This document shows, piece after piece, positions 2,494 to 45,070 of a stretch of 64,000 nt of DNA (position 1 is the first letter of the stretch; every line of letters starts with the position of its first letter). The notes under the pieces are model-generated. The model was not told where the DNA came from. It saw only the letters and a program-made list of their open reading frames with translations, and made no database searches. The translations under genes were made by a program, and so were the position numbers. The stretch is from the sequence record MK327940.1; one strand, written 5' to 3'. This stretch comes from Escherichia phage vB_EcoM_G29.

Positions 2494-3498
2494 TTAACTT
2501 ACCAATTCAATCCAAGCCGGACGAAGTACATCTTGTACCATTTTAACTAATTCCTTCTTAATCAAAGAAGGATTATCCGCTTGAGTTAGAGTAATACCTT
2601 CACGAGAAGTTTCTTCCAAAATATCTTGAACCGTTAGTCCCATCACCTTTCCAAAATCTTTTGGACCAATTTCACCAATTTTAGAAATAACGTTATTTAC
2701 TCGGTTCAGTGTAACATAACAAGCTAAAATTCCCAGCAATTTATTATCAGCTTCTGACAACTCAACTTTAGCTTTAATAGGCTTATCAGACTTTTTCTTT
2801 TCACTAAATTTAGAGTTCTTGCATTTGATGGCTACACGATTGCGATTAGGCAGCCAAGAAGGATAACAAGGTTTCAATACATATCCTTCAGCGGTAAATA
2901 CTTCGCCTTTTGCTTCAGCATTCCAAACGCATTTATTTGCATCAACTAATCCAGCATGGTCTACCGTAAAATTATAATCCTGTACGACAGAATCTAAATC
3001 ATTTGGCAATTTAATAAGTTCTTCAAATTTACCACGACCTAAAAGTGGAGCCATTTTAAATTTAAATGTATTACAGAATGATTCCATCATATAATCATCG
3101 ACATAAATTACATCACCACTTTCTGTAGTAACAATAATGTCAAATACATAAAAATCTTTATCACCATAATCGACATTCTTCTGAATGCCAGGTCCGGCGA
3201 ATTCACCAAAGACTTGATAAGATACAACCGCTGAAGTTTCCATAATATCTTGTACTGCTTTAATGGAATCAGCGTAATTCTTCAAAATAATTTCATACCC
3301 AAAGAAATCTTCAGCAGGAAGAATAGGACCAGTTCGTTTAGCACAAGTTACTTTATCACGCTCAATAATCAATGAGAAATTTGTGCCGTGAATCTTTTCA
3401 CGAGCTACCCATTCGCCGCCAGTCAATCCTAAACTGTAAAGTTTTTCAATAAATTTAGAGTTGTAATGATTTTCAAGACTGCTATACTTTTTAAACAT
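2494..3498 (-). CDS. rnlB: RNA ligase 2 (Rnl2)
   Basis: 334-aa ORF; contains the nucleotidyltransferase lysine motif EKIHGTN; length and position match T4 rnlB. Confidence 0.9.
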
Positions 3499-3507
3499 AA
3501 TTAATCC

Positions 3508-3786
3508 TCAAAATGTAATTTCTAACCAATCACCATCACGCTGATCACTATTGACTTTAAAGCTAAATCCTTCTTTTCTCAGCCAATCACCAATTTCTTC
3601 AGTAATCAATTTATCGCGAGCAGTACAATAATAACTAAAATATGTTTTACCTTGTTCAGCTGCTTTATTAGCAAGTTCCGAAAAATCTTTAATAAAACAC
3701 TCTAGCTTAAACTGTTTACTTTTAAGTGCTTTTTCACGTAATTGATTAGCAAAAGATTCATTTTCATAAAGATCATACTGTTCCAT
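3508..3786 (-). CDS. Hypothetical protein (position of T4 24.2)
   Basis: 92-aa ORF tightly packed between rnlB and the next ORF; no recognisable domain. Confidence 0.6.
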   Translation of the reverse strand: MEQYDLYENESFANQLREKALKSKQFKLECFIKDFSELANKAAEQGKTYFSYYCTARDKLITEEIGDWLRKEGFSFKVNSDQRDGDWLEITF

Positions 3787-4077: not shown

Positions 4078-5551
4078 TTATGGATAGGTATAGATGATAC
4101 CAGTTTCTAAAGCAGTTTTATGAATGATGTATCCATTGCGTGATTCTTGAACATCAACTTCTGGATAGTCTTTCATCATCTTCTGAAGAGTGTAACGATG
4201 CAGGTAGTATTTACTATCTGGATCTTCAGTTTTCCAATCTTTACCTTCTTCGGTCATTTTTTGGATTTCATCCATAACCCACCAACCGCACCAGATATAA
4301 GCTGAAGTGCGATGTGGAAGAGGATGAACATAAGGCAATTCACCTTCTGGTTCCGGAGCAACTTTATCAGTTACCTGAACTTGGCCTGTTGCTTTAACTG
4401 TTTTACTATCATAGTCGGTTGCTGTAACGGTTGCAGTAACTTCAATAGTTTGACTTCCAATAGATGATGTATCAACCGTGTATACATTAGTTGATTCTTC
4501 TACAGGAGAAGAATCTTTCTTCCATGAATATTCGATTTGTGCTTCTTCTGGAGCATCCGTAACATTAGCAGTAAATGTAGCCGAAGCATCTTGCTGAACG
4601 TTAATAGAAGGAGGAGTCAATGTAACCTGTGGATTCATTGTCTTCTTATTAACTGTTAATGATACTTCATTAGAAGTAACTTCCTTTTCATTGTAATTTT
4701 CAGCCGTTACTTGGGCTACGCATTTAATTCTTTTTACTCCACTTGTAGTTGGAGTATAGTTAAATGTAGAGTTAGTTTCTCCACCAATTTGAGAATCATC
4801 TACATACCATTTATATGTAGCAGACGCTCCATCAGGTTGAGAAACCAAGGCAGCAGTAAATTGAACTGGGGTTCCAATTACTCCAGCTGGAGGACTATCA
4901 GGAGTTACTGCCAAGGTAGTTGTCTGCGTCTTTTTATTAACAGTCAGTGACACTTCATTGGAAGTAACTTCCTTTGTATCATAATCTGTCGCGGTTACTT
5001 GAGCTACGCACTTAATTGTTTTAACTCCGCTTGCGTCAGGAGTGTAATTGAATGTAGTGCTAGTTGCTTCGCCCACAGGAGAACCGTCAACGTACCATTG
5101 ATACGTAGCGTTTGCACCTGATGGCTGTGAAGCTAAGGCAGCCAACGTACCATTGATACGTAGCGTTTGCACCTGATGGCTGTGAAGCTAAGGCAGCGGT
5201 AAATTCAATTGGAGTTCCAATCACTCCAGCATCAGGGCTACCAGGAGTTACTGCCAAAGTAGTTGTTTGTGTCTTATTTTGAACTGTGATAGTTGTACTA
5301 ATTTCAGCTGTTTCAGGTTCAGATTCTGCAACTTGATTGGTTGCAACTACTTTAATAGTCTTTTGACCGGCAGGTCCTTTTAGTACATAACTAAAAGTTG
5401 CTGACGTTTCTTCCTGTGGAGCGTCGTCTACAGTCCAAGCATATGTAATAGGTCCATCTCCAGTTTGACCACTGGGTGTAGCAGTAAACTGCTGAGTCTG
5501 ATCTATAACTCCAGTAGGTGTTTTAGGAGTTATATCAACTGTAAAAGCCAT
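4078..5551 (-). pseudogene. hoc: hoc (outer capsid protein with Ig-like domains), frame broken by a 55-bp tandem duplication
   Basis: Two overlapping minus-strand ORFs (5087..5551 and 4078..5172) together encode repeated Ig-like ~95-aa domains (QTTTLAVTP...VSLTVNKKT) plus a C-terminal region (LPYVHPLPH...WCGWWVMDEIQ); the break coincides with a perfect direct repeat at 5088-5197. Confidence 0.8.
5088..5197. repeat. Perfect 55-bp tandem direct duplication (2 copies: 5088-5142 and 5143-5197)
   Basis: caacgtaccattgatacgtagcgtttgcacctgatggctgtgaagctaaggcagc occurs twice back-to-back with 100% identity; 55 is not a multiple of 3. Confidence 0.95.
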
Positions 5552-6291: not shown

Positions 6292-7803
6292 ATGACTGAC
6301 ATTAAAGTACATTTTTATGATTTTAGTCACGTGAGAATTGATTGCGAAGAAAGTACATTTCATGAACTCCGTGATTTCTTTAGCTTTGAAGCTGATGGGT
6401 ATCGTTTTAATCCGAAGTACAAATATGGCCACTGGGATGGACGAATTCGTCTTTTAGATTATAATCGCCTTCTTCCATTCGGTTTAGTCGGGCAAATTAA
6501 AAAGTTCTGCGATAACTTTGGCTATAAAGCCTGGATTGACCCACAGATTAACGAAAAAGAAGAATTATCAAGAAAAGATTTTGATGAATGGCTTTCTAAA
6601 TTAGAAATCTATTCAGGAAATAAAAGAATTGAACCACACTGGTATCAAAAAGATGCAGTGTTCGAAGGATTAGTTAATCGTCGTAGAATTCTTAATCTTC
6701 CAACATCCGCTGGTAAATCTTTAATTCAAGCTTTGCTTGCGCGATATTATTTGGAAAATTATGAAGGTAAAATTCTTATCATTGTTCCAACAACTGCTTT
6801 AACAACTCAGATGGCTGATGACTTTGTTGATTATCGTTTATTCAGTCATGCAATGATAAAGAAAATCGGTGGTGGAGCATCAAAAGATGATAAATATAAA
6901 AATGATGCACCAGTCGTTGTTGGTACATGGCAAACTGTAGTAAAACAACCGAAAGAATGGTTCTCACAGTTTGGAATGATGATGAATGATGAATGCCATC
7001 TTGCTACAGGAAAAAGTATTTCATCTATCATATCAGGTTTAAATAACTGCATGTTCAAATTTGGTCTATCTGGTTCATTACGTGATGGCAAAGCCAATAT
7101 CATGCAGTATGTTGGAATGTTTGGTGAAATATTTAAGCCAGTAACGACTTCTAAGTTAATGGAAGATGGACAAGTAACTGAGCTAAAAATTAATAGTATT
7201 TTTCTTCGCTATCCCGATGAGTTCACTACTAAATTAAAGGGAAAAACTTATCAAGAAGAAATAAAAATTATTACGGGGCTTAGTAAAAGAAATAAATGGA
7301 TCGCTAAATTGGCTATTAAGCTTGCACAAAAAGATGAAAACGCTTTTGTCATGTTTAAACATGTATCACATGGTAAAGCTATTTTCGATTTAATTAAAAA
7401 TGAATACGATAAAGTTTATTACGTATCAGGGGAAGTTGATACCGAAACCCGCAATATAATGAAAACCTTAGCTGAAAATGGTAAAGGAATAATTATAGTA
7501 GCTAGTTATGGTGTATTTTCTACTGGTATTTCAGTTAAAAATCTGCATCACGTTGTTTTAGCGCACGGTGTTAAATCAAAAATCATTGTATTACAAACAA
7601 TCGGTCGTGTATTACGTAAGCATGGTTCTAAAACAATCGCAACAGTCTGGGACCTCATAGATGACTGTGGTGTCAAGCCAAAATCTGCTAATACTAAAAA
7701 GAAATATGTTCACTTGAACTATCTTTTAAAACACGGCATTGATCGTATTCAGCGCTACGCAGATGAAAAATTTAATTACGTAATGAAAACAGTTAATTTA
7801 TAA
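6292..7803 (+). CDS. uvsW: UvsW DNA helicase (SF2, DECH box)
   Basis: 503-aa ORF with Walker A (PTSAGKS) and DECH motifs; position between inh and uvsY as in T4. Confidence 0.9.
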   Translation: MTDIKVHFYDFSHVRIDCEESTFHELRDFFSFEADGYRFNPKYKYGHWDGRIRLLDYNRLLPFGLVGQIKKFCDNFGYKAWIDPQINEKEELSRKDFDEWLSKLEIYSGNKRIEPHWYQKDAVFEGLVNRRRILNLPTSAGKSLIQALLARYYLENYEGKILIIVPTTALTTQMADDFVDYRLFSHAMIKKIGGGASKDDKYKNDAPVVVGTWQTVVKQPKEWFSQFGMMMNDECHLATGKSISSIISGLNNCMFKFGLSGSLRDGKANIMQYVGMFGEIFKPVTTSKLMEDGQVTELKINSIFLRYPDEFTTKLKGKTYQEEIKIITGLSKRNKWIAKLAIKLAQKDENAFVMFKHVSHGKAIFDLIKNEYDKVYYVSGEVDTETRNIMKTLAENGKGIIIVASYGVFSTGISVKNLHHVVLAHGVKSKIIVLQTIGRVLRKHGSKTIATVWDLIDDCGVKPKSANTKKKYVHLNYLLKHGIDRIQRYADEKFNYVMKTVNL

Positions 7804-7828
7804 GGGCTTCGGCCCTTTGGAGAAAAAG

Positions 7829-8059
7829 ATGTTACTAGAATTTAAACAATTTCTTTATGAAGCTTCTATTGATGAATTTATGGGTAAAATTGCCTCTTGT
7901 CAAACATTAGAAGGTTTAGAAGAACTTGAAGCTTATTATAAGAAAAGAGTTAAAGAAACTGAATTAAAAGATACTGATGACATCTCAGTCAGAGATGCTT
8001 TGGCAGGAAAAAGAGCTGAATTAGAAGATTCAGACGATGAAGTAGAAGAAAGCTTTTAA
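7829..8059 (+). CDS. uvsW.1: UvsW.1 small acidic protein
   Basis: 76-aa ORF from the ATG at 7829 (track ORF begins at an upstream TTG); RBS ggag 7 nt upstream, preceded by a UUCG hairpin. Confidence 0.7.
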   Translation: MLLEFKQFLYEASIDEFMGKIASCQTLEGLEELEAYYKKRVKETELKDTDDISVRDALAGKRAELEDSDDEVEESF

Positions 8060-8114
8060 ATTAAAAAAGGCCCAACCAAAAAGGAAGGGCCAAAACTATA
8101 GACTAAAGGTCACA

Positions 8115-8282
8115 CTATAGCAAAAGTTGCGTTTCATTTAATTGTTCTTCCGAACTTTCTGAAACTGGTAGTTCTTTAATGTAATTATAGCAAGGCCCAG
8201 GATGTACAGGACCTTTGTCTGTTTCAACAACCAATGCAGAATCGATTGGAGTTTTACAGACAACACAAATCTTATCTGACAT
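8115..8282 (-). CDS. Small Cys-rich protein (position of T4 uvsY.-2)
   Basis: 55-aa ORF translated by hand (MSDKICVVCKTPIDS...) below the track size cut-off; coordinates approximate. Confidence 0.45.
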   Translation of the reverse strand: MSDKICVVCKTPIDSALVVETDKGPVHPGPCYNYIKELPVSESSEEQLNETQLLL

Positions 8283-8310
8283 GATTGTCTCCTCTGAATT
8301 ATATATCTAT

Positions 8311-8535
8311 TTATACAACTCTCATATGCATATCAATGCCCATATCTTTAGAATAAAAATATTCATCAAGATATCCGGCAAATTTTCCTTTAATATAAAG
8401 AACATCTTCACCGCACGGGTGGTCGGCCAGGATACGAATATCCTGACGCTTAAGATTATGCTTTTTCATTAAGAATTGAATTTCCGTTTCAAATTCTTCT
8501 TCATAATTAAAAGCATCATCAATGTTATATCTCAT
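8311..8535 (-). CDS. Hypothetical protein (position of T4 uvsY.-1)
   Basis: 74-aa ORF whose start overlaps the uvsY stop (translational coupling). Confidence 0.6.
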   Translation of the reverse strand: MRYNIDDAFNYEEEFETEIQFLMKKHNLKRQDIRILADHPCGEDVLYIKGKFAGYLDEYFYSKDMGIDMHMRVV

Positions 8536-18769: not shown

Positions 18770-20821
18770 TTATCCTTGAACGAACTTGTAAGGCATGTTT
18801 GTAATATCTATGCAAGACGCAATAATTCCAAGAGATGATTCTACTTTCTGTTTAACATTTGATGAAACAAATGATGCAAAGTCAACTCTATCTTCTATAT
18901 CACCTGTCATTGTAACTACTTCGCCGGTTTCCATTAAACGGTCACCGTCATAAATTACTGATTCGGTGAGTTCTTCGGTGGTCATAACTTCAGCTTGAAT
19001 AAGCTTGTTGTTAGTTTTGACTGTTCCATCATTGTAAGATGCATCAGTTATTTTATTAACTTTGACCATTAATCCACGTGGCAAAATGACTTCCATTTCA
19101 TTTGAAGGCGCTAAACTTCCACCGGGTAAAACAACATTGACTTTATCAGCCCCAGTAATAACCCATCCAATTCCGACTAAATTATCGCTAGAATTAACAA
19201 GCCCTTCATCATTTTTATCGATAGAAATGTTTAGACGCTTTTCATCTGGTAAAACACCAACAGCTGAATCAGTCATCCAAGTACCAAAAATGTTTGGATA
19301 TAATGATGTTGATACAAAATTTCTAAAATAAAAAACTCGATTTTTTACCATTGCTTCGTATATTGAAGGTAACATTCGTTGTGAACGATACAAAGTAATA
19401 CCTTTTGGTAATCGTTCACCATTTTTAAAGGCTGAATCTAAATTATCAATAGCTTTTTCTATGTCAGATGCTGTCAAAATACTTGTACGCTCATCTGGAT
19501 TATATAATCCCAAAAGAGCATTATTTATGTCTACATATCCTGAACCTACGTATTCACGAATTCCGCGTTTTTGTGCTGGTGTGTATTTAGATGAATCTTT
19601 ATTTTCGACTATAGGATGTAATGACCATCCAGCTGTAAGAGCATATCCACGTAATTCTCTTCGAATAATCTTTGTTTTTATTGCATTCCAAGAATTTTGT
19701 ACTAACTCATTTGCAGCATCTTGGTTTAAATGCGAATGTTTGTTAATATTTCTTTCAAACCAAGCACCTTTATATTTTTCTAAAGTATTATCGACGATAG
19801 AAGCAATAGTTTCTAAAGTTTTTATTGAAGTAATAGATTCTTTTCGTAATTTTTCTAAAGCTTTATTTTTTATTTCTGCATTAATAATGGATTCTTTATC
19901 TTCAGGAATTATAGAAGCTTCTCTGAATGCCATCCCAGCTGTAACACTGCTAAGAGCATTCTCTAGTGCAAATCCTGAAGTAGAAATTACCGTTAATTCA
20001 TTAGAATCAGAAATTAAAGGCGCATCAGCGGGTTTATTTAATTCTGCTGCTGAAGCCTCAAATTTTTGAAACATCGGTGTTTCAAATCTAGAAGATTCCA
20101 ATGACTGACTTTGTGCAATTGCTCTACGGGAAATTTTAACTTTAACGATTACAGCTTGGTCAGAACGTTTATCATTTTCTTGTGCAATAGATGCTGCAAT
20201 TGCCTCATTTTTGGTTACTTGAGCTCCGGTATCTTTATTGATATAAACATCACCGACCTTCGATTCAACTTTAGTAAAGAGCTCGGTACTAATTTCCGGA
20301 ACTCCTGGAATGTCTTCTAGTGATACATTTTTGCGATGTATAAGAATATATGCATACTTTTTATCATAATCCCAGAGTTCCTTAAGAAGGACGTATCTGC
20401 CACCTGAACGACTACGGATAAGTCTATCAGCAATAACTTGAATTTGTCGAGCTTGATCAGCGGTTTTAGACTTAAGAATACGAAGCATACAAGCATCAAT
20501 TTTATACTGACGCATTGTTTGCATTGCAACAGTAAAAACTGAATTGATATAATTAATTGGGCTTGGACCAAGACCTTTTAATTTAGCAATTGAACCTTTA
20601 GCGGTTAATGTAAAAGGAACAATATGCATCATTTTATCGCCCATTTTTAAATCGCGATTAGTATCACCTCCAGATGTATAGGTACATAAACGAAAGCCTG
20701 GTTGTTCAATTGCATCATCAACATGAACTGAAAAAATTTGCGGTATTTTCTTCTTTGGATTTAAGTTTGTAATCGGAAGAGTAGTATCTTCGTCAAATAA
20801 TTCTGTAATAAGTTCCATCAT
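18770..20821 (-). CDS. alt: Alt ADP-ribosyltransferase (packaged internal head protein)
   Basis: 683-aa ORF with R-S-E ART motifs (LYRSQ, VSTSL, EMEVILPRG); late promoter immediately upstream. Confidence 0.85.
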   Translation of the reverse strand: MMELITELFDEDTTLPITNLNPKKKIPQIFSVHVDDAIEQPGFRLCTYTSGGDTNRDLKMGDKMMHIVPFTLTAKGSIAKLKGLGPSPINYINSVFTVAMQTMRQYKIDACMLRILKSKTADQARQIQVIADRLIRSRSGGRYVLLKELWDYDKKYAYILIHRKNVSLEDIPGVPEISTELFTKVESKVGDVYINKDTGAQVTKNEAIAASIAQENDKRSDQAVIVKVKISRRAIAQSQSLESSRFETPMFQKFEASAAELNKPADAPLISDSNELTVISTSGFALENALSSVTAGMAFREASIIPEDKESIINAEIKNKALEKLRKESITSIKTLETIASIVDNTLEKYKGAWFERNINKHSHLNQDAANELVQNSWNAIKTKIIRRELRGYALTAGWSLHPIVENKDSSKYTPAQKRGIREYVGSGYVDINNALLGLYNPDERTSILTASDIEKAIDNLDSAFKNGERLPKGITLYRSQRMLPSIYEAMVKNRVFYFRNFVSTSLYPNIFGTWMTDSAVGVLPDEKRLNISIDKNDEGLVNSSDNLVGIGWVITGADKVNVVLPGGSLAPSNEMEVILPRGLMVKVNKITDASYNDGTVKTNNKLIQAEVMTTEELTESVIYDGDRLMETGEVVTMTGDIEDRVDFASFVSSNVKQKVESSLGIIASCIDITNMPYKFVQG

Positions 20822-32636: not shown

Positions 32637-34224
<1,588 letters not shown>

Positions 34225-34251
34225 AATAAAATGGGCCTTGCGGCCCACTCC

Positions 34252-35430
34252 TTAAAAGTATTTTTTAAAACTCATCATAACTTTATCATCAACATCATTA
34301 TCAATCTGTGCAACAAGATAAGATGACAGTTCTACTTCTTGTGGCGCTGATTGAACATTATCAGAATTAAGATATTCACGAATCCAAGGATATGGATGTT
34401 TAACCGGAGCATCGGTAATTGGGCATGGAAGACCGCACTGTTTCATACGAGATACAGTTAAGTAATCAATAAAGCTCCACATGCTATTTGTATTTAATCC
34501 AGGAACATCGCCATCTTTAAATAAATGAACTGCCCAATCTTTTTCTTGGCGGTTAACTTCCATGAAAATATCAACTGCTTCTTGTTCACACTCTTGAGCA
34601 ATTTTAACCCATTGATCGCCATCAGTACCAGATTGAAGTTGACGAATAATATATTGTGTACCTTTAAGATGAAGCTGCTCATCACGTGCAATGAACTTCA
34701 TAATCTTGGCATTACCTTCCATGATTTCCATGTTTTTATGGAAGTTAAAGGTACACGCAAAGGATACATAAAAACGAATAGCTTCTAATGCATTAATAAC
34801 GTGCAAACAGAGGTAAAGAGATTTCATTAGCTCACGCTTCCAATATGTCTCATGCTCAATAGCATCTTCAATAACGTCTTCGTCTGCATTAATTTCTTTT
34901 TGGTATTCGATATCAGCTTTAGCGTTTTCCCAATAACGAGTTTTAATCAGAACATCATCATAATAACGTCCAATGGATTCAGCACGTTTCATAATAGCTT
35001 CATCTAATACAATTTCATCAAATACCTTCGATGGATCAGTATAAAGATTTCGCATGATATGAGTATATGAACGACTGTGAATAGTTTCACTAAAAGTCCA
35101 TGTAGCAACCCATGTATCAAGGCTTGGGTCTGAAATTAATGACATAAGTACAGCAGATGGCGCGCGACCCTGAATGCTATCTAAAAGTGATTGATACTTC
35201 AAGTTGTTAGTAAAAATATTTTGCTGATACTGAGGAAGCTTATTAAACTGTGCAGCATCCATCATCAAGTTTACTTCTTCAGGACGCCAGAAAAATGATA
35301 ATTGCTTTTCGGTTAAATCTTCAAAAACTTTATGACGTTGAATATCATAACGCGCAATACCAAGACCTGAACCAAAAAACATAGGTTCTTTTAAAACATC
35401 AACTGGATTTGTATTAAAAACTGTGCTCAT
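34252..35430 (-). CDS. nrdB: Ribonucleotide reductase small subunit NrdB, uninterrupted
   Basis: Single continuous 392-aa ORF; no intron or intron-ORF sequence. Confidence 0.9.
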   Translation of the reverse strand: MSTVFNTNPVDVLKEPMFFGSGLGIARYDIQRHKVFEDLTEKQLSFFWRPEEVNLMMDAAQFNKLPQYQQNIFTNNLKYQSLLDSIQGRAPSAVLMSLISDPSLDTWVATWTFSETIHSRSYTHIMRNLYTDPSKVFDEIVLDEAIMKRAESIGRYYDDVLIKTRYWENAKADIEYQKEINADEDVIEDAIEHETYWKRELMKSLYLCLHVINALEAIRFYVSFACTFNFHKNMEIMEGNAKIMKFIARDEQLHLKGTQYIIRQLQSGTDGDQWVKIAQECEQEAVDIFMEVNRQEKDWAVHLFKDGDVPGLNTNSMWSFIDYLTVSRMKQCGLPCPITDAPVKHPYPWIREYLNSDNVQSAPQEVELSSYLVAQIDNDVDDKVMMSFKKYF

Positions 35431-35481
35431 AAATTTTCCGCTTAGTTAATAGTTGGTGACTCGTCCGTGAGTCAAATTATA

Positions 35482-37746
35482 TCATAATTTACAGGATGAA
35501 CAATCTTCAGCTTTTGGAGTTTCTATTTCATAATCATCAGTACCAGAACCGTCACGGGTATTATGATAATAGAAATTTTTTCCGCCAAAATACCAGAAAT
35601 ACAAAAGGTCATCAATCATTATTGACATTGGAACCTTGCCTTTAGGGAAGATTTGGGGGTCATAGTATGTATTCGCCGAAGCTGATTGACAAACCCATTT
35701 CAGCATAATAGCTACCTGCGTAAGATAAGGTTTATTACCTTTCTTAGCTAATTTCCATGTATAATCATATAGGTCTATGTTATGTTCAATATTGGGCACG
35801 ACTTGATTAAAGGAACCCTCTTTTGATTCTTTAACAGAGACTGGTCCACGTGGAGGCTCGATACCGTTTGTACTGTTAGAAACTTGGGAAGATGACTCAC
35901 ATGGCATAAGTGCTGATAGTGTGCTATTACGGATGCCAAAGAGCTTAAGGTCTTCCCGCAGCGACGACCAGTCACAAACGTATTTTGGAGCTGCGATTTG
36001 GTCAATCTTTTTATTGTACCAGTCGATAGGTAATTCGCCTCGAGACCAACGAGTGTCTGAATAATATTCGCAAGGTCCTTTTTCTTTGGCGAGCTTAATG
36101 GATGCTTTAATGAGTCCATACTGTAATCTCTCAAATAGTTCATGTGTTAAATCGTTAGCATCTTCATAAGAAGCAAAGTTACTTGCCAGCCAAGCTGCAT
36201 AGTTGGTAACACCTACACCGAGGTTACGACGCTTTTTAGCTTTTTCTGCTTCAGGAACTGGATATCCTTGGTAATCCAAAAGATTATCAAGAGCACGAAC
36301 TTGAACTTCTGCCAATTCATTAATTTTATCTTGGTCTTGCCAGTCAAAATTATCTAGTACGAATGCAGAGAGAGTACACAATCCAATTTCAGCATCAGGA
36401 CTATTCACATCATTTGTTGGAATAGCAATTTCACAGCACAAGTTACTCTGACGAATAGGTGCCTTTTCACGAATAAACGGAGTATAGTTATTCGTATTAT
36501 CAATGAACTGTACATAAATTCTTGCTGTTCCTGAACGTTCAGTCATGAGCAATTCAAATAGTTCACGGGCTTTAATACGCTTTTTACGAATATTAGGGTC
36601 TTTTTCTGCTGCTTCGTATAATTCACGGAAACGGTCTTGGTCTTTAAAATAAGAATAATAAAGCTCTCCACCCATTTCATGCGGACTGAACAAAGTAATG
36701 TAATCGTTCTTTCCGAATCGTTCCATCATCAAATCATTCAGTTGAACACCATAATCCATATGACGAATGCGGTTTTCTTCTACGCCTTTGTTATTTTTCA
36801 AAACGAGAAGATTTTCAACTTCCAAATGCCAAATAGGATAATAAGCAGTAGCAGCGCCGCCACGAATTCCACCCTGTGAACATGATTTAACTGCAGTCTG
36901 AAAATGTTTCCAAAAAGGAATAACACCAGTATGGCGTACTTCACCCATGCCAATCTTAGAACCTTCGGCACGAATCATACCAACGTTAATACCAATTCCA
37001 GCGCGTTTAGAGATATATTCAACAATCGAAGCGGAAGCCTTATTGATAGACTTCAGCGAATCACCTGCCTCAATAACAACACATGAACTAAACTGTCGAG
37101 TCGGAGTACGACAACCAGCCATAATAGGAGTTGGTAATGAAATCTGTCGAGTAGATACTGCTTCATAAAAACGAATAACATGTTTTAATCTATCAACAGG
37201 TTCATCTTGATGCAATGCCATTCCAATAGTCATAAATGCAAACTGCGGAGTTTCATAAATTTGACCAGTGGTTTTATCTTTAACGAGATATTTTTCTTTT
37301 AATTGCATCGCCCCGGAATAAGTAAATTCCATATCCCGTTCGTGCTTAATTTTTGATTCTAAAAATGTAATTTCTTCTGCTGAATATTTTGACAACAATT
37401 CAGGGTCATATTTACCTTCATTTACACAGTAAGAAATATGGTCAATAAATGAACGCGGTTCATACTGCCCATAAACATGCTTACGAAGAGCGAACATTAG
37501 ACAACGTGCAGCTACATATTGATAATCAGGCTCTTCAACCGAAATAGAATTCGCAGCGGCCTTAATGACAATAGTCTGAATATCATCAGTTGTCATTCCA
37601 TCACGGAGATAAGATTTAATATTTTCATATAATTCATAAGGATCTACTGATGTTCCCTCAGCTGCCCAAGATAAAACTTTAATAATTTTTTGTGGGTCAA
37701 AGCTCTGAGAAACACCACTACTTTTGATAACATTAATTAATTGCAT
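35482..37746 (-). CDS. nrdA: Ribonucleotide reductase large subunit NrdA
   Basis: 754-aa ORF with class I RNR active-site region (NLCCEIAIP). Confidence 0.9.
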   Translation of the reverse strand: MQLINVIKSSGVSQSFDPQKIIKVLSWAAEGTSVDPYELYENIKSYLRDGMTTDDIQTIVIKAAANSISVEEPDYQYVAARCLMFALRKHVYGQYEPRSFIDHISYCVNEGKYDPELLSKYSAEEITFLESKIKHERDMEFTYSGAMQLKEKYLVKDKTTGQIYETPQFAFMTIGMALHQDEPVDRLKHVIRFYEAVSTRQISLPTPIMAGCRTPTRQFSSCVVIEAGDSLKSINKASASIVEYISKRAGIGINVGMIRAEGSKIGMGEVRHTGVIPFWKHFQTAVKSCSQGGIRGGAATAYYPIWHLEVENLLVLKNNKGVEENRIRHMDYGVQLNDLMMERFGKNDYITLFSPHEMGGELYYSYFKDQDRFRELYEAAEKDPNIRKKRIKARELFELLMTERSGTARIYVQFIDNTNNYTPFIREKAPIRQSNLCCEIAIPTNDVNSPDAEIGLCTLSAFVLDNFDWQDQDKINELAEVQVRALDNLLDYQGYPVPEAEKAKKRRNLGVGVTNYAAWLASNFASYEDANDLTHELFERLQYGLIKASIKLAKEKGPCEYYSDTRWSRGELPIDWYNKKIDQIAAPKYVCDWSSLREDLKLFGIRNSTLSALMPCESSSQVSNSTNGIEPPRGPVSVKESKEGSFNQVVPNIEHNIDLYDYTWKLAKKGNKPYLTQVAIMLKWVCQSASANTYYDPQIFPKGKVPMSIMIDDLLYFWYFGGKNFYYHNTRDGSGTDDYEIETPKAEDCSSCKL

Positions 37747-38063
37747 AAGTCCTCAACTTGAAAATCGTCTTTAAACAATCGGTTAACTATATGAGCTATT
37801 ATATCACCATGACACGGCTTTGGTTTACATGTGCATCCTAGCCTCATTCCACGTAAAGGCTCTAAATGTGCTTTAGTTATTTCTCCGGATTTAATTCGAC
37901 GTATAAAATCTTTTTTGAATAATTCAATGGCAGCCTCCCGGCTGCCAGCATCTTTACCGACGTAATTTCCCCAAAATGTACCACGGTGAATATTAACATC
38001 AAAGTCGGATTTGTATTTATTCACTACCCGACATAGACGGCCCGCGCGGTGATAATTCGGCAT
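37737..38063 (-). CDS. Hypothetical Cys/His-motif protein (nrdA.1 position)
   Basis: 108-aa ORF containing [11 protein letters not shown]; overlaps the nrdA start. Confidence 0.6.
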
Positions 38064-38280
38064 ATTGTTTTTCCGTTAAAACAGTAATATCGTAGTAACA
38101 GTCAGAAGAAGTTTTAACTGTGGAAATTTTATTATCAAAATACTCACGAGTCATTTTATGAGTATAATATTTTTTGCCATAAATGATAATAGGCTGATTT
38201 GGTCCTGGAACTTCTAGCTCACTTGGATTAGGAAGTGTAAAAAGAACTACACCAGAAGTATCTTTAAATCGTAAAATCAT
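38017..38280 (-). CDS. Hypothetical protein (nrdA.2 position)
   Basis: 87-aa ORF; overlaps the next ORF by 47 nt in another frame, so the start is uncertain. Confidence 0.45.
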
Positions 38281-39137
38281 ATTGCCATTTTCCCTTTAAT
38301 TGCTGGATGCGATTCATAATTTTCAAGGATAAAATCTTTCGGTTTCATGTATTCAGTTAACCAGTAAAGCTGTGTTTCGGTGTCACAATTTCCAAACTCT
38401 ATAGGCCAATCAATTTTAAGTTCACATAGTTCTTTAGGCTCACGACGTAAAATTTCTTTACATTGCTCAGTATGATTCATATAGATGTGAGTATTACCAC
38501 CAGAAAATATCAAATCTCCTGGGATAAGATTACACATCTTAGCCACAATATGCGTCAAGGCAGCGTACGAGGCAATGTTGAATGGCAATCCCAAGAAAAC
38601 ATCTACACTTCTTTGGTACCATTGTAAATCAAGATAACCATTACGCACATTAAACTGATAGAACATATGACAGGGCGGTAATGCCATTTGATTGATTTCA
38701 GCTGGATTCCATGCTGAAACGATTTGACGTCGATCAGTTGGTAATTTTTTAATACGATCAATAGTTTCAACTAATTGATCCACACCGCCGAAATCACGCC
38801 ATTGTTTACCGTATATAGGACCAAGTTCACCACTATGATATCCTAGGTCTTTAGCCTGGTTTTCATAGTTATCGTCCCAAATAGTTTTACCTTGAATAAG
38901 ACTACCATGTGTGCGAAGACGTAAATCATTAACATTGGTAGAACCGGAAATAAACCATAGAAGCTCAGCAATGCATGCATTCCACGCAAGCTTCTTAGTT
39001 GTTACCGCAGGAAAACCTTTAGTTAAATCCCAACGTAATTTAGTACCGAACAAAGCAATTGTTCCTGTGCCTGTTCGGTCATCGGTTTCATAGCCATTTT
39101 CAAAAATGTCTTTAATTAAATCTTGGTATTGTTTCAT
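38277..39137 (-). CDS. td: Thymidylate synthase, uninterrupted
   Basis: 286-aa continuous ORF with active-site region PPCHMFYQF; no intron. Confidence 0.9.
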
Positions 39138-39182
39138 TTAGTACCTTATATAAATTATAATACATTTTATGAAGCTAAATAA

Positions 39183-39530
39183 TCAATACGGTTTAGCATC
39201 AAATTTTCTCTCAATTTCAGGCGTGAAATATAATTCTTTACCGCGTTTGGAAAAGCGACCAATAATATGATAATTATTCTCATCAAATGTGATATTACCA
39301 ATATCCATAGCTTTCAACCAAATATCGATATTTCTATCCAGCTTTATGTCAAAATTCCAATACGGAGAACTATTACCGAAAATACTGCAAGCGGATTCAG
39401 TGAAACAACTGCTATAAATCTTGTCTTTAGGAACTACTAATTGATAGACACCTTTAATAAACTGAGGACCCTGCCACTTTGGCTGTTTCGTGTCTTTTTC
39501 TAATAGAATAGGGTAATAATTAAAATTCAT
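39183..39530 (-). CDS. Hypothetical protein inserted between frd and td
   Basis: 115-aa ORF in a 412-bp interval separating frd from td. Confidence 0.6.
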   Translation of the reverse strand: MNFNYYPILLEKDTKQPKWQGPQFIKGVYQLVVPKDKIYSSCFTESACSIFGNSSPYWNFDIKLDRNIDIWLKAMDIGNITFDENNYHIIGRFSKRGKELYFTPEIERKFDAKPY

Positions 39531-39549
39531 ATTTCCGCCACGCGTTATT

Positions 39550-40376
<827 letters not shown>

Positions 40377-40387
40377 ATTATCTCCTA

Positions 40388-40720
40388 TTAAAAAGGATCA
40401 GGAACATATCCGCTAGCTTTAATCATTTTAATTAACGTTAACATTCCTTTGTTAACTGCTCGTGAGATTTCATCAAAAACTTCATCACTAAAAAGTTCTA
40501 ACACGCCCTTCTGAACTTTTAATTTACAGCCAACAATTTCGTCATCTCCTATAGTAAATTCGCTTCCGCCAATTCCGCCGAAAAACTTAATTACGCCAGT
40601 TAACTGTCTTCCACGAGAATATGGGTCGTGTGATAAAGTAATATGAGTCACCCCGGGTACAGTTTTAAATTGGCAGCGAATATTTACTTGTGAAATTCCA
40701 ATTACATGAATGTCAGACAT
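40388..40720 (-). CDS. Hypothetical protein (frd.2 position)
   Basis: 110-aa ORF. Confidence 0.6.
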   Translation of the reverse strand: MSDIHVIGISQVNIRCQFKTVPGVTHITLSHDPYSRGRQLTGVIKFFGGIGGSEFTIGDDEIVGCKLKVQKGVLELFSDEVFDEISRAVNKGMLTLIKMIKASGYVPDPF

Positions 40721-40730
40721 AATATTTTCC

Positions 40731-40973
40731 TCAAATAGACTTTTTCACAATTTTCCAATCAGCTTTAAACTGATCGACGTCAGAGTGATAAATCCAAAAT
40801 CCTGCGCTTTCACCGTCTTCATAAAGCGGACACCCATCACATTCATCTTCCCATCCCATGCCACGTAAAAGGTGTTCAGCTTTTTCAACAAGTTCAGAAT
40901 CTTTACCGATGATATTAAAATACCATTTACCTCTAACTTCTGAATCTTTGATACTCTGACGTTGTAATCTCAT
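40731..40973 (-). CDS. Hypothetical protein (frd.3 position)
   Basis: 80-aa ORF; early promoter upstream. Confidence 0.6.
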   Translation of the reverse strand: MRLQRQSIKDSEVRGKWYFNIIGKDSELVEKAEHLLRGMGWEDECDGCPLYEDGESAGFWIYHSDVDQFKADWKIVKKSI

Positions 40974-41082
40974 TTTATTCTCCTTAGCAAGCTTTAATCA
41001 AAAGATATAAACAGACCAACATAACTGCTGCCATAATATAAGGTGCGAACATTTTCTTTTCTCCATTAGTTTTGATAGGGTA

Positions 41083-41112
41083 ATAGTATCACACTACTAC
41101 CCTTTTGTAAAC
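41083..41112 (-). promoter_or_regulatory. T4-type early promoter
   Basis: Minus strand GTTTAC-18 nt-TACTAT; the -35 overlaps the stop of the upstream ORF. Confidence 0.55.
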
Positions 41113-41477
41113 TACTTTTTGAAAGTTTTTCGCAAAAGTTCAATGATTTCATCTACATTGTTTTCGTCAACAATGCAGTGAATTTTTGTTACGCCAGAAA
41201 CTATGTCTTCGGCTCCATCTTCTTCAGAAGTCGGTTCTTTATACTCGCGAAAACAATGAAATTCGTCTTCACAAACGTTAAAGTAAAAATGCTTTCCATT
41301 TGCGCATTCAATGTGTTTTATTACTCTAAATCCATCAACAAAGAAAGCTTCTTTAACTTCAAACCATCCACCATTTTCTTGAATAATTTTAACTATCGAT
41401 GAATTAGAACGTGGGCGATAATTAATAAATGTATCAATAAGTCTTGGAACAAGCTCATACTTTTTGCCAATATACAT
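41112..41477 (-). CDS. Hypothetical protein between frd.3 and gene 32
   Basis: 121-aa ORF with SD GAGGAAAA, preceded by a GGGGC...GCCCC hairpin. Confidence 0.6.
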   Translation of the reverse strand: MYIGKKYELVPRLIDTFINYRPRSNSSIVKIIQENGGWFEVKEAFFVDGFRVIKHIECANGKHFYFNVCEDEFHCFREYKEPTSEEDGAEDIVSGVTKIHCIVDENNVDEIIELLRKTFKK

Positions 41478-41522
41478 TACGTTTTCCTCATTTTAACGGG
41501 GCTTGTAATAGCCCCTTGATAA

Positions 41523-41753
41523 TTATTGTTCAATCAATCCCATGTAAAATTCTGCGTCTTCAGAATCCATACCATCACAATATTCATTAGCCATAAAGCG
41601 GGTGAGGTCTTCAAGAGGACCTTCAATGACAATAGAAAAATTGCAATAATTGGGATCATCGTGAATACTTGTGATACTAAGTTCAGGATAACGATTACGA
41701 ATAATTTCTTCGATATATTCAAAATCAACGATGTCAATATCAACTTTAGCCAT
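41523..41753 (-). CDS. Hypothetical small acidic protein
   Basis: 76 aa from [13 protein letters not shown]... with SD GAGGAAA; track ORF 41523..41879 extends through the promoter and is probably over-called. Confidence 0.55.
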
Positions 41754-41796
41754 ATTATTTTCCTCTTTAATTATCAGCAGTATTGCCGATAGTTGT

Positions 41797-41826
41797 ATAG
41801 TACCATGGAAGGACAAGGATGTAAAC
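41797..41826 (-). promoter_or_regulatory. T4-type early promoter with A/T-rich upstream element
   Basis: Minus strand GTTTAC-18 nt-TACTAT; the flanking sequence recurs at 58484-58545 and 62136-62190. Confidence 0.6.
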
Positions 41827-41849
41827 AGTTTTGTGAAAAAATTTTTGAA

Positions 41850-41877
41850 ATAAAAAAAGGGGACCTCTAGGGTCCCC
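41850..41877 (-). terminator. Terminator after gene 32
   Basis: GGGGACC...GGUCCCC hairpin followed on the minus strand by uuuuuuua. Confidence 0.7.
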
Positions 41878-41899
41878 AATTAATTAGTAATATAATCTG

Positions 41900-42808
41900 T
41901 TAAAGGTCATTCAAAAGGTCATCTAGGTCCGTGTCATCAGCACTAGATGAACTGCCAGAGCTTGAGCTCATAAAATCATCTTCAGTTTTTGTTTTGAAGT
42001 CATCAACATTGAATGCATCCAAATCATCAGCAACTTTATCAGCTTTCTTAGCGGCAGTTGCAGCGGCACCACCCATTGCAGCAGTTCCCATAACTTGACT
42101 GAACTTAGTGCTCAGTTCTTCAAATGATTTGAATTTATCTTTAGAAGTCATTTCAGAAAGGTCAACCATTTGTTCGAACAGTTCTTTCTGGAAAGATTCA
42201 TCGTCAATGTTTGGAATCGCAGATTGATTCAGGAATTTAGATTCGTCGTAGTTACTAAAACCAGAAACTTGTTTAACTTTCAGTACAAAGTTAGCACCTT
42301 CCCACGGGCAAGTTACATCAACCGGAGTTTCACCCATTTCAACATCAACTGCAATCATTGCATTGATTTTATCCCAGATTTTCTTACCGAAACGATATTT
42401 AAATACTTTACCTTCGTTTTCTGGAGCAGCTGGGTCTTTTACAACAAGAATGTTAGCCCAGTAAGAAGTTTTACGTTTAACAAGACTGTACTCTTTATTG
42501 TCAGTGTTGTACAAATCATTTTTACTGATGTACTGACATACTGGACAAGAATCGTAATCACCGTAGGTAGATGAGCATGTTTCGATATACCATTTACCAT
42601 TTTTCTTGAAACCGTGATTTACAAGAAGTGCGAATGGTGCTTGTTCATCATTTTTAGACGGAAGAAAACGAATTACTGCTTGGCCGTTACCCGCATTGTC
42701 GAGTTTCAGTTTCCACTCGCCTTTATCTTCAGAAGAAAAACCACCTTTATTTCCAGCCAGTTTAGCCATTTGCGCAGCGAGTTCAGCAGTAGATTTACGT
42801 TTAAACAT
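41900..42808 (-). CDS. 32: gp32 single-stranded DNA-binding protein
   Basis: 302-aa ORF with acidic serine-rich C-terminal tail ([22 protein letters not shown]). Confidence 0.9.
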
Positions 42809-42870
42809 TTTTATTTCCTTTTTAATTTAATTAACAGTTGGTGCTATGACGATGTATGACCTCATAGCTG
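42809..42870 (-). promoter_or_regulatory. Gene 32 translational operator (unstructured A/U-rich leader)
   Basis: Leader reads uuaauuaaauuaaaaaggaaauaaaa-AUG, the repetitive A/U tract gp32 binds for autoregulation in T4. Confidence 0.6.
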
Positions 42871-42892
42871 GTCAGTGAGATAATTATAATCT

Positions 42893-42900
42893 TATTTATA
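42893..42900 (-). promoter_or_regulatory. Late promoter (TATAAATA) upstream of gene 32
   Basis: Exact TATAAATA on the minus strand about 85 nt upstream of the gene 32 ATG. Confidence 0.5.
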
Positions 42901-42908
42901 ATAAGCAA

Positions 42909-43562
42909 TTAATACTTGCAAGATTTCACAGTTTCAATGAAAACATTTTTAGCTTTCTGTGAATCAATATTTAAAATTTTTCTATAAGCCTTTAACTTTA
43001 TAGAATAATTATTCCAGACTAAATTATCAGTCTGTTCATCATGTTTATCAATTATATTTAAAAACGAATCAAGCAAGATAAACGTTTCAAACGAAATTAT
43101 ATTCGATTGAAGTAGTTTAAAAATATAACTTGATTGAACTTTTGGATTATACTCAAAGATTTCTTTAAAAGCAGAAACTTCAACTTTTTTACTAAAATAG
43201 TAAATATTGCGAATATCTTCTTCAAACTTAAATTTAATTTGCTTTAAGCGTCCGATATATTCACGATAAAACACAAGTGCATCAGCGTCAGAGATGTCAC
43301 CAATCCAAGCATCTTGGTTAGCAACCAAATTACTTATAAAAATTAAAGCAAGTTCCTTTAATTTATATTTTTCTGATAACTTCTGGAAAAAATACTTATC
43401 CCTTCGCTTTTGATAAGCGGCATCAGACACCCGCATGCACCAATTATACTTAATTACATCATACTTTCCATTCATATGCTGTTTTATCATTAAGTATAAT
43501 TTATAAACTGATTTACCATCAATGTATCTTTCACCACCAGCAGGCATGCGGAGTTTAATCAT
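42909..43562 (-). CDS. 59: gp59 helicase loader
   Basis: 217-aa ORF, T4 gp59 length; only 100 bp separate it from gene 32. Confidence 0.9.
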   Translation of the reverse strand: MIKLRMPAGGERYIDGKSVYKLYLMIKQHMNGKYDVIKYNWCMRVSDAAYQKRRDKYFFQKLSEKYKLKELALIFISNLVANQDAWIGDISDADALVFYREYIGRLKQIKFKFEEDIRNIYYFSKKVEVSAFKEIFEYNPKVQSSYIFKLLQSNIISFETFILLDSFLNIIDKHDEQTDNLVWNNYSIKLKAYRKILNIDSQKAKNVFIETVKSCKY

Positions 43563-43897
43563 AGTAGAAAATCTAATGTATTAGTTTTTTCACAACGAAC
43601 AACAGAAGGACGTAAAAGATTTTCGTCAATAGCTTCTGACTGAATTTTTTCAATTATACCCGAAGGAATAAATTTAGCAAATTGAGTTTCAGGAATAGAA
43701 TTTTCTTCTAAGAATGCTGTTGTAGCTTCAAGATAACTCATTCCAAACTCTTCTACCATTTTTTCAATAATAAATCCATTTTCTTGGCGGTCAAGAAGCT
43801 TTGCAATTTCATCCTTTTCTTTCTTAATTGAAAGTTCTTTTTCTGAAAGTCCGGTCTCATCGACCGGACGAATATCATTTAGAGAAAACTGTGTCAT
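43559..43897 (-). CDS. 33: gp33 late-transcription co-activator
   Basis: 112 aa from MTQFSLNDIRPVDETGLSEKE...; ATGA overlap with gene 59. Confidence 0.8.
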   Translation of the reverse strand: MTQFSLNDIRPVDETGLSEKELSIKKEKDEIAKLLDRQENGFIIEKMVEEFGMSYLEATTAFLEENSIPETQFAKFIPSGIIEKIQSEAIDENLLRPSVVRCEKTNTLDFLL

Positions 43898-44144
43898 AAA
43901 GTTCAACTACCTCTTCAGTTTCAGCTTCAAACACATCACGATTATCTTTATGATACAAAGCTAACAGACGATTAAACATCTTACCATCAACGCCAAGTTC
44001 ATCTTTGGCACGAATTCGAATATCTTTAATCAATTCATTATAACCAGAAATTTTCAGTTTATGATCAGATGCTTCTTTAATAAATTTAGCCAAGTCTTCG
44101 CCATGGATAGCTTCATCAAATTCAACCATTTCTTTTTTAGCCAT
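43875..44144 (-). CDS. dsbA: DsbA double-stranded DNA-binding protein
   Basis: 89-aa ORF overlapping the gene 33 start, as in T4. Confidence 0.75.
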   Translation of the reverse strand: MAKKEMVEFDEAIHGEDLAKFIKEASDHKLKISGYNELIKDIRIRAKDELGVDGKMFNRLLALYHKDNRDVFEAETEEVVELYDTVFSK

Positions 44145-44152
44145 TATTCACC

Positions 44153-45070
44153 TCAAAATTCATTAATGCTATTAGTTAATTTAGAAAGACCCGCTTTTAC
44201 AAAATATGAATAAATTTTGCCGCGCGGTGGTAATTTATATGAATTATAGTAATTCACAATGTTTGAAGCAATATTATCAGGAATATAATCAAAATCAATT
44301 AGAACTAAATTTTCTTTATAACGATTATATTCAGATTCTGTGAGAAGCACCTTAGCTTGCTCACGGTCATTAGCAATAGCTTCAACAATAGAGGTTTTCA
44401 TTGAAGGAGTTCGTTCACCTTCAACTCTGGTAAACCAAAAGTCAGATCGTACTTTAACTGAAGCAACGTTATCCTTTTTGTCGCCTTTAAGGATTTTAGT
44501 CATACAGTCAATTTCAGCAGAACCGCTTTTAATTTTAACCCATTTCTTGTGCATCGGTGACCATTGCTTAACATTTGGGTATTTGTGAAGTTGAGTAAAG
44601 TCACCATCCGACGAAATGATTAAAATCTTATGTCCTTCTAAAGAGAACTTTTTAACAAGAACAGCGATATGATCATCTGCTTCATACTTATCAATATCCA
44701 TAACGATGTATGGCATATAAGCTTTCAATTCATCTATAACTTTATGACTGGATTCAAAATAACCTTCCCAGTCCCAAGTAGATTCTTCTCGTGCTTTTCC
44801 ACGGTTTTTCTTATAATAATAAGCGAAATCACGACGCCAGTATCCAGATTTCGCATTATCAATACACAATACAATTTTAGTGTATCCAAGAGTTTTTGCT
44901 TTTTTAACATTGAACTTAATTGAGTTCAATATCAAATGACGAACCATTGATAAATTAATTTTTTCTTTATCTGGGAAGTTTACCAGAGCAGTTGAAAGCG
45001 CAATCTGACTAAAGTCAATTAAGCAAATTCCTTCTTTGTAATCTTCATCCAGCATCATTTCTAAATCCAT
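44153..45070 (-). CDS. rnh: RNase H (5'-3' exonuclease / flap endonuclease)
   Basis: 305 aa from MDLEMMLDEDYKEGICLIDF...; acidic metal-binding motifs (CIDN, DDHIAV, SSDGDF). Confidence 0.9.
   Translation of the reverse strand: MDLEMMLDEDYKEGICLIDFSQIALSTALVNFPDKEKINLSMVRHLILNSIKFNVKKAKTLGYTKIVLCIDNAKSGYWRRDFAYYYKKNRGKAREESTWDWEGYFESSHKVIDELKAYMPYIVMDIDKYEADDHIAVLVKKFSLEGHKILIISSDGDFTQLHKYPNVKQWSPMHKKWVKIKSGSAEIDCMTKILKGDKKDNVASVKVRSDFWFTRVEGERTPSMKTSIVEAIANDREQAKVLLTESEYNRYKENLVLIDFDYIPDNIASNIVNYYNSYKLPPRGKIYSYFVKAGLSKLTNSINEF

Follow-up and report, generated by a model that had tools for sequence, protein, structure and literature searches.

The region described here lies in a 64,000-nucleotide stretch of Escherichia phage vB_EcoM_G29 (MK327940.1), which we refer to as the window. 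Between positions 33800 and 44200 it is 100% identical to Escherichia phage vB_EcoM_G4500 (MK327945.1, Tequatrovirus), and its reading frames include those for nrdB, nrdA, td and genes 32 and 59 (Table 1). The genome is that of a deposited, annotated isolate. A sequence-only reading had described td and nrdB as single continuous reading frames, and alignment confirms this: both genes are colinear with the spliced exons of T4, and clean breakpoints were obtained by blastn against the T4 reference (NC_000866) at td, nrdB, nrdA–nrdB and 59–32. The same reading placed I-TevI in td, a defective I-TevIII in nrdB, and mobE and segG in T4, in agreement with the T4 annotation. Its estimates of about 50 bp for the nrdA–nrdB spacer, free of a mobE-like gene, and of 100 bp for the 32–59 spacer, free of a segG-like gene, are matched by the measured intervals and by null tblastn searches with MobE and SegG. 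The 59–32 spacer also keeps the sequence that corresponds to the gene 32 translational operator/pseudoknot.

Table 1. Genes, spacers and unoccupied target sites of the region (window coordinates)
Feature	Position	Strand	Description
denA (EndoII)	33814–34248		GIY-YIG domain; conserved T4 gene, not a mobile element
nrdB	34252–35430	(-)	392 aa, one unbroken ORF; T2-type length (T4, 388 aa)
Empty nrdB intron insertion site	34735–34774	(-)	Insertion between 34755 and 34754: TTTTTATGTATCCTTTGCGT^GTACCTTTAACTTCCATAAA
MobE nicking region of nrdB	35300–35317	(-)	nt 114–131; T2-type, codon 42 is AAG
nrdA–nrdB spacer	35431–35481	(-)	51 bp; without mobE, hef or nrdB.1
nrdA	35482–37746	(-)	754 aa, unbroken
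nrdA.1 (DUF4326) and nrdA.2 (DUF5496)	37737–38280	(-)	Conserved T4 ORFs, no endonucleases
td	38277–39137	(-)	286 aa, one unbroken ORF; divergent allele
Empty td intron site and I-TevI homing-site equivalent (-37..+24)	38565–38625	(-)	Insertion between 38589 and 38588
Gene 32 (SegG target gene)	41900–42808	(-)	97.2% identity to T2 gene 32
59–32 spacer	42809–42908	(-)	100 bp; without segG
Gene 59 (helicase loader)	42909–43562	(-)

On alignment, the T4 td intron (1017 nt in NC_000866) and the T4 nrdB intron (598 nt) would fall at the two insertion points listed in Table 1, and neither nrdB.1 plus mobE (700 bp) nor segG (623 bp) of T4 has a blastn counterpart in the window. Remnants of introns or endonucleases, sought with Rfam, tblastn, blastn and Pfam, were not found. 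No group I intron reached the Rfam gathering score anywhere in the window, and matches at E ≤ 1 over 33800–43700 included nothing relevant. Nine endonuclease or spacer proteins were used as tblastn queries, including I-TevI, I-TevIII (defective and full length), MobE (T4 and G9062), SegG and nrdB.1; the best match had E = 0.32, and T4 MobE, the G9062 MobE-like protein and SegG gave E > 1. Word-7 blastn with the intron and endonuclease DNA of T4 returned short AT-rich chance matches only, none at the expected positions. One of the candidates, a 42-nt, 79% match to the nrdB intron at the end of gene 59 and in the spacer (E = 0.11), was treated as chance. Among ORFs of 45–420 amino acids outside the T4 genes already identified, Pfam detected no HNH, LAGLIDADG or mobile GIY-YIG domain, the sole nuclease domain being the GIY-YIG domain of denA. 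Three ORFs that T4 lacks (39183–39530, 40131–40376 and 40388–40720) were considered as hidden endonucleases and rejected, as Pfam and PHROGs assign them to unknown-function families only; for the first and third, a search of solved structures revealed no relative. The window lacks the group I introns of td and nrdB and the free-standing mobE and segG genes, and this absence is real but common.

It is hardly credible that the absence is an artefact of assembly or annotation. The window does contain a 55-bp duplication in hoc, and there is adapter sequence in the GenBank record of the source genome, but no reading frame is broken or truncated, and hundreds of independent genomes, T2 and RB32 among them, have the same uninterrupted junctions.

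The four sites differ in how closely they resemble characterized targets. At nrdB, the 40-base intron site departs from T4 twice (at -8 and +20), with a third difference beyond it at -35, and 78 of 80 positions of the I-TevIII site agree with the T4 exon junction; the I-TevIII cleavage positions (-14/-16; PMC1865063) correspond to about 34768–34770, inside the empty site. Exon 1 of nrdB is about 86% identical to T4, and the whole gene is 93.6% identical to T2 nrdB. Nicks by MobE have been mapped at nrdB nt 122–126 (PMC2790892), equivalent to 35305–35309 in the window, where the surrounding region departs from T2 by two synonymous changes (nt 129 and 132). The putative recognition sequences in nrdB are nearly T4-like for I-TevIII and T2-type for MobE. 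The SegG target was compared at the level of the whole gene, gene 32 being 97.2% identical to that of T2.

The td site is further from its T4 counterpart. The gene is about 77% identical at the nucleotide level to both T4 td (77%, ungapped and full length) and T2 td (77.6%), with exon 1 about 84% identical to T4 and 239 of 286 amino acids shared with the T4 protein. Across the I-TevI homing-site equivalent, 44 of 61 positions are identical to T4 and all 17 differences are synonymous, leaving the encoded protein unchanged over this stretch; the primary binding region (-8..+12) retains 14 of 20 bases. The CNNNG motif is present (CAAAG, 38611–38615), with C-27 and G-23 kept, but 17 of the 61 positions have diverged. 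We conclude that this is not a T4-like homing site, and infer that I-TevI could cleave it.

One reading of these differences is that the td allele has drifted into a partly I-TevI-refractory target, on which the synonymous changes slow or block intron invasion. It would draw on the 17 protein-neutral differences and the poorly matching primary binding region, and on the CAAAG-AAGTG sequence, which also occurs in RB32; the window site has five of the eight changes of the RB32 site, the only natural td site at which Tev-TALE activity was lowered (PMC4065259). The same positions have been converted to T4-like sequence in the phages G8, SF7 and AV114. We nevertheless consider this reading unlikely. 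The critical bases C-27 and G-23 are retained, the AAC-to-AAA change is a single A/T-rich substitution of a class reported to be near wild type (PMC4065259), I-TevI binds its operator (15/20 identity) no less well than the homing site (PMC2988022), and the same allele type has acquired the intron in G8 and SF7. A related proposal, that td is a naturally hardened target in which synonymous changes clustered at the cleavage motif and spacer and at the insertion site measurably lower cleavage, is doubtful to a similar degree; if true, it would help to explain why about two-thirds of T4 relatives are intron-free despite efficient homing.

Close relatives provide occupied counterparts of these sites. 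Phages vB_EcoM_G8 and Pu-Krd-SF7 carry a T4-type td intron of 1016 nt with I-TevI inside the allele type of the window, and the G8 copy is 99.7% identical to the intron of T4. In G8 the intron is flanked by a short T4/T2-like conversion tract (about -45 to +3), and Pu-Krd-SF7 differs from G8 in having an additional T4-like stretch at about nt 300–465 of td; outside the converted stretches, the td exons of both phages are of the window type. This td allele type therefore occurs both empty and occupied. vB_EcoM_G9062 (Tequatrovirus gee9062), which belongs to the same species as the window phage and is 97–98% identical across the region, likewise has intronless td and nrdB genes but, unlike the window, has a gene for a 244-amino-acid MobE-like HNH endonuclease filling its nrdA–nrdB spacer. 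The mapped nicking site of G9062 is also T2-type despite this gene, which means that either the sequence alone is not decisive for sensitivity or the target of the enzyme differs. A nrdB intron with a full-length I-TevIII is found in vB_Eco_BGP. The target genes and spacers of the window are thus unbroken exactly where G8, G9062, BGP and T4 are occupied, supporting the proposal of empty homing sites in the sense of intron- and endonuclease-less alleles at positions filled in close relatives.

Empty sites of this kind could also have arisen if an occupied ancestor had secondarily and precisely lost its introns and endonuclease genes, rather than through lack of invasion. Loss after fixation is predicted by the homing-endonuclease life-cycle model (PMC2988022), and the 320-nt td intron of HP3.1, which has no endonuclease ORF, represents an intermediate stage of decay. 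However, the td site of the window has none of the T4-like conversion marks still present around the insertion site in invaded alleles of its type, its spacers match those of T2 almost base for base, and the search for remnant sequence was null, so that we regard precise loss as quite improbable.

The unoccupied state is also frequent. Among related records (about 500–850, depending on the locus), td is uninterrupted in 465 of 674 (about 69%) and the T4 td intron is carried by 197; the nrdB intron occurs in 118 records, compared with 602 that have nrdB (about 80% without the intron). The nrdA–nrdB junction is uninterrupted in 407 of 543 (75%), and segG is present in 142 of 512 (72% without). 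If the loci were independent, all four empty states would occur jointly at roughly 0.69 × 0.80 × 0.75 × 0.72, or about 0.3. Because most relatives have the empty configuration, it does not set the window phage apart. The intron- and endonuclease-free state is common and long documented in most T4 relatives, including T2, and its description here is correct but ordinary; T4 has already been described in the literature as the outlier, and this presence/absence polymorphism is known and well understood.

The region is very probably an ordinary, unoccupied (T2-type) Tequatrovirus nrdB–nrdA–td–frd–32–59 block, with sites expected to act as recipients in mixed infection. The td and nrdB introns, mobE and segG may never have been kept in its lineage; at the least, they have left no mark on it, and its genes function as plain, uninterrupted reading frames. 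A recipient role would be expected only when the phage infects a cell together with a relative that carries such introns or endonuclease genes; the donor enzyme would cut or nick the empty allele, and repair would then copy the element, together with a short flanking stretch of donor sequence, into the recipient. That the sites of the window would be cut and converted in this way is suggested by work on T4 × T2 crosses and by the natural mosaics G8 and SF7.

Alone, the empty sites have little significance. The sporadic distribution of introns and seg/mob genes in T-even phages has been described for decades, as has the outlier status of T4. Of modest practical use is the prediction that phages like G4500 would be recipients in mixtures with T4-like phages, such as phage cocktails, and would lose local markers there; the G4500/G8 and G4500/G9062 pairs provide natural empty and occupied controls for the study of conversion tracts.

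T4 has homologous host genes and insertion positions, with a nrdB insertion site almost identical to that of the window; it differs in carrying the td intron with I-TevI, the nrdB intron with I-TevIII, mobE and segG, all absent here, and in the diverged td and nrdB exon 1. T2 (AP018813) is the closer parallel in organization. Its nrdB–nrdA–td–frd–32–59 genes are in the same order, neither td (861 nt) nor nrdB (1179 nt, 392 amino acids) has an intron, and it shares with the window the T2-type MobE target and a 348-nt ORF between frd and td. Its spacers (nrdA–nrdB, 51 bp; 59–32, 99 bp) are nearly identical to those of the window, with four differences over 63 nt in the first and one indel in the second. 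The window differs from T2 in an extra ORF (DUF7247, 40388–40720) downstream of frd and in its td, which is a different allele; the td gene of T2 has 95.8% identity to that of T4. In T4 × T2 crosses, T2 is the classical recipient, a role established by experiment for mobE and segG (PMC2790892, PMC2988022).

When the window was compared by blastn with T4 (NC_000866 and its annotation), the alignment was interrupted exactly at the positions of the T4 mobile elements. The td intron of T4 (1017 nt in NC_000866) would be expected between window positions 38589 and 38588 and the nrdB intron (598 nt) between 34755 and 34754, but both td and nrdB read through without interruption and contain no mobile insert. 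The same comparison found no counterpart in the window of T4 nrdB.1 plus mobE (700 bp) or of segG (623 bp); the nrdA–nrdB spacer measures 51 bp and the 59–32 spacer 100 bp. These results bear out the sequence-only reading, which had described two uninterrupted ORFs, an nrdA–nrdB spacer of about 50 bp without a mobE-like gene and a 100-bp 59–32 spacer without a segG-like gene. Every gene concerned lies on the minus strand.

Window coordinates of the genes concerned and of neighbouring or additional features
Feature	Coordinates	Strand	Product or length	Source
nrdB	34252-35430	-	392 aa	ORF list
nrdB variable stretch (nt about 500-600)	34830-34930			
nrdA	35482-37746	-	754 aa	ORF list
nrdA.1 and nrdA.2	between nrdA and td	-		ORF list
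td	38277-39137	-	286 aa	ORF list
frd-td cassette	39132-39556		404 bp	
Cassette ORF	39183-39530	-	115 aa	
Cassette direct repeats	39548-39556 and 39132-39140		9 bp	
Two ORFs between frd and frd.1	40131-40720	-	81 aa and 110 aa	
gene 32	41900-42808	-		ORF list
gene 59	42909-43562	-		ORF list
hoc tandem duplication	5088-5197 (5088-5142 = 5143-5197)	-	55 bp	
hoc ORFs	4078-5172 and 5087-5551			

Rfam detected no group I intron across the whole window at the gathering score, and with the cut-off relaxed to E ≤ 1 it gave no relevant match in 33800–43700. With I-TevI, I-TevIII (defective and full-length), MobE (from T4 and G9062), SegG and nrdB.1 as queries, tblastn gave no match better than E = 0.3, and the element DNA used as a word-7 blastn query returned only short AT-rich chance matches. 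A Pfam scan of ORFs (45–420 amino acids, minus those already identified as known T4 genes) revealed a single nuclease domain, the GIY-YIG of denA (endonuclease II), which is not a mobile element but a conserved T4 gene. The proposed check for intron or endonuclease remnants on the T4 alignment was therefore negative and the observation stands: the intron-free, endonuclease-free state of these loci is confirmed. The 23/24 and inh/uvsW spacers, where T4 has segD and segE, are also short.

Positions 33800–44200 match Escherichia phage vB_EcoM_G4500 (MK327945.1; Tequatrovirus gee9062; manure, Germany) at 100%, with window coordinates equal to those of that record minus 104363 from position 19721 on; two small differences upstream of 19721 have no bearing on the intron finding. 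The whole 10.4 kb is colinear with many independent isolates. At about 123962–124138 of MK327945.1 (window 19721–19775), the second alt-like gene holds 177 extra bp, consisting in order of the Nextera adapter CTGTCTCTTATACACATCT, poly-A and a 55-bp repeat, which look like an assembly artefact. The window gene lacks this insert, in agreement with the 2049-nt gene of G4498, and the window is thus not byte-identical to MK327945.1. Separately, hoc is frameshifted into two ORFs by a perfect 55-bp tandem duplication that is absent from MK327945.1 and G4498; it has the appearance of a k=55 assembly overlap left untrimmed, not of a biological feature.

T2 (AP018813) resembles the window in its intronless td and nrdB, its nrdA–nrdB spacer of 51 bp (four substitutions) and its 59–32 spacer of 99 bp (one indel). 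MobE-dependent nicks map to nt 122–126 of T2 nrdB, and all phages without mobE have AAG at codon 42, followed by a conserved FFWRPEE block (PMC2790892); the window nrdB is T2-type in this region apart from synonymous changes at two positions, nt 129 and 132. At the nrdB insertion site, the I-TevIII cuts fall 14 and 16 bp upstream (PMC1865063), and from -40 to +40 only -35, -8 and +20 differ from the T4 exon junction. Gene 32, the target gene of SegG, has 97.2% identity to T2 gene 32, compared as a whole gene. Elsewhere in nrdB, the variable stretch has 12 nt more than its T4 counterpart, with which it cannot be aligned (392 versus 388 amino acids for the whole products). Upstream, identity to T4 is ~86%; it rises abruptly to 98% at ~75 nt ahead of the intron site and remains at that level across exon 2 and denA, a recombination boundary near that site.

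The td gene is divergent, with 77% identity to both T4 td and T2 td between flanking genes at 94–98%. It is a mosaic outlier, its C-terminal segment (about nt 720–800) almost unrelated at the DNA level, and at least three td allele types (T4/T2, window and RB32, a related phage) circulate in Tequatrovirus. Across the I-TevI homing site (-37 to +24), 17 positions are unlike T4 and the 21 amino acids encoded there are unchanged. The CNNNG motif retains C-27 and G-23 at the right distance, as CAAAG for CAACG, and the 20-bp primary binding region has 14/20 identity to T4. Published work points towards a cleavable td site: the motif depends critically on C1 and G5 (PMC5009752), and an operator with 15/20 identity is bound by I-TevI as well as the homing site (PMC2988022). 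The RB32 td site, the only natural phage site with lowered activity in the Tev-TALE assay (PMC4065259), points the other way, against ready cleavage: CAAAG-AAGTG is common to both phages, although the other three RB32 changes are absent from the window. That the divergent allele is partly refractory to I-TevI we consider unlikely; if true, it would be a modest result.

The cassette between frd and td encodes a protein (phrog_1928) for which no Pfam or PDB relative was found. It is bordered by a direct repeat, TAAATGAAA, of which T4 has one copy, at its overlapping frd/td junction; its occurrence in 362 phage records makes cassette-less T4 the minority state. T4 has neither of the small ORFs that lie between frd and frd.1. 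T2 and RB32 have the shorter (phrog_3183) and lack the longer (DUF7247/phrog_3566).

Among 50,697 phage records, td matched as a single uninterrupted piece in 465 of 674 and the T4-type td intron was present in 197. At least 80% of the nrdB intron was present in 118 records, compared with 602 that have nrdB; the nrdA–nrdB junction was uninterrupted in 407 of 543, and 142 of 512 had segG. Assuming that these states are independent, about 30% of relatives would have all four sites empty. The empty configuration is not unusual; because it is common and already known, its interest is low.

Related phages carry the corresponding elements. In G8 (NC_054915), window-type td exons hold a 1016-nt intron with I-TevI, 99.7% identical to that of T4, and T4-like exon positions are confined to one tract (about nt 505–552, or -45 to +3) that covers the interval between the I-TevI cut site and the point of insertion; in Pu-Krd-SF7 the tract has the same limit downstream and is longer upstream. 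This pattern is what would be left by double-strand-break repair after I-TevI cleavage, although recombination without cleavage may also have produced it. HP3.1 (OK275722), a Tequatrovirus that also has the frd–td cassette, carries at the same td site a 320-nt intron without an endonuclease ORF (1505–1824 of the stretch compared). G9062, the exemplar of the window's species, has a MobE-like HNH gene in the nrdA–nrdB spacer (244 amino acids; 1828–2562 of the stretch compared), the first ~55 residues of which are close to T4 MobE. In T4 (7717–8417 of the stretch compared), MobE has only 141 amino acids and is followed by nrdB.1, and the T4 gene may therefore be a shortened form. As nrdB of G9062 is itself T2-type at the mapped nicking site, the polymorphism does not obviously confer self-immunity. 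The nrdB intron is present in vB_Eco_BGP (OZ035849), with full-length I-TevIII; adjoining it, the nrdA–nrdB spacer holds a 247-amino-acid ORF with a DPPY motif (2957–3700 of the stretch compared) that looks like an adenine methyltransferase, not a MobE-type endonuclease.

Because the td, nrdB and nrdA–nrdB sites are occupied in these relatives, those of the window are empty alleles of live presence/absence polymorphisms, which supports their earlier description as empty homing sites, with a caveat for td. Their behaviour as recipients in mixed infections is extrapolated from T4 × T2 work and natural mosaics. If a relative bearing one of the elements infected the same cell, its enzyme would cut or nick the empty alleles, and repair would then copy the element and short flanks into them; cutting of td by I-TevI is genuinely uncertain. 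The exclusion of T2 markers by T4 rests on such cutting or nicking by a donor enzyme, with copying by repair (PMC2790892, PMC2988022).
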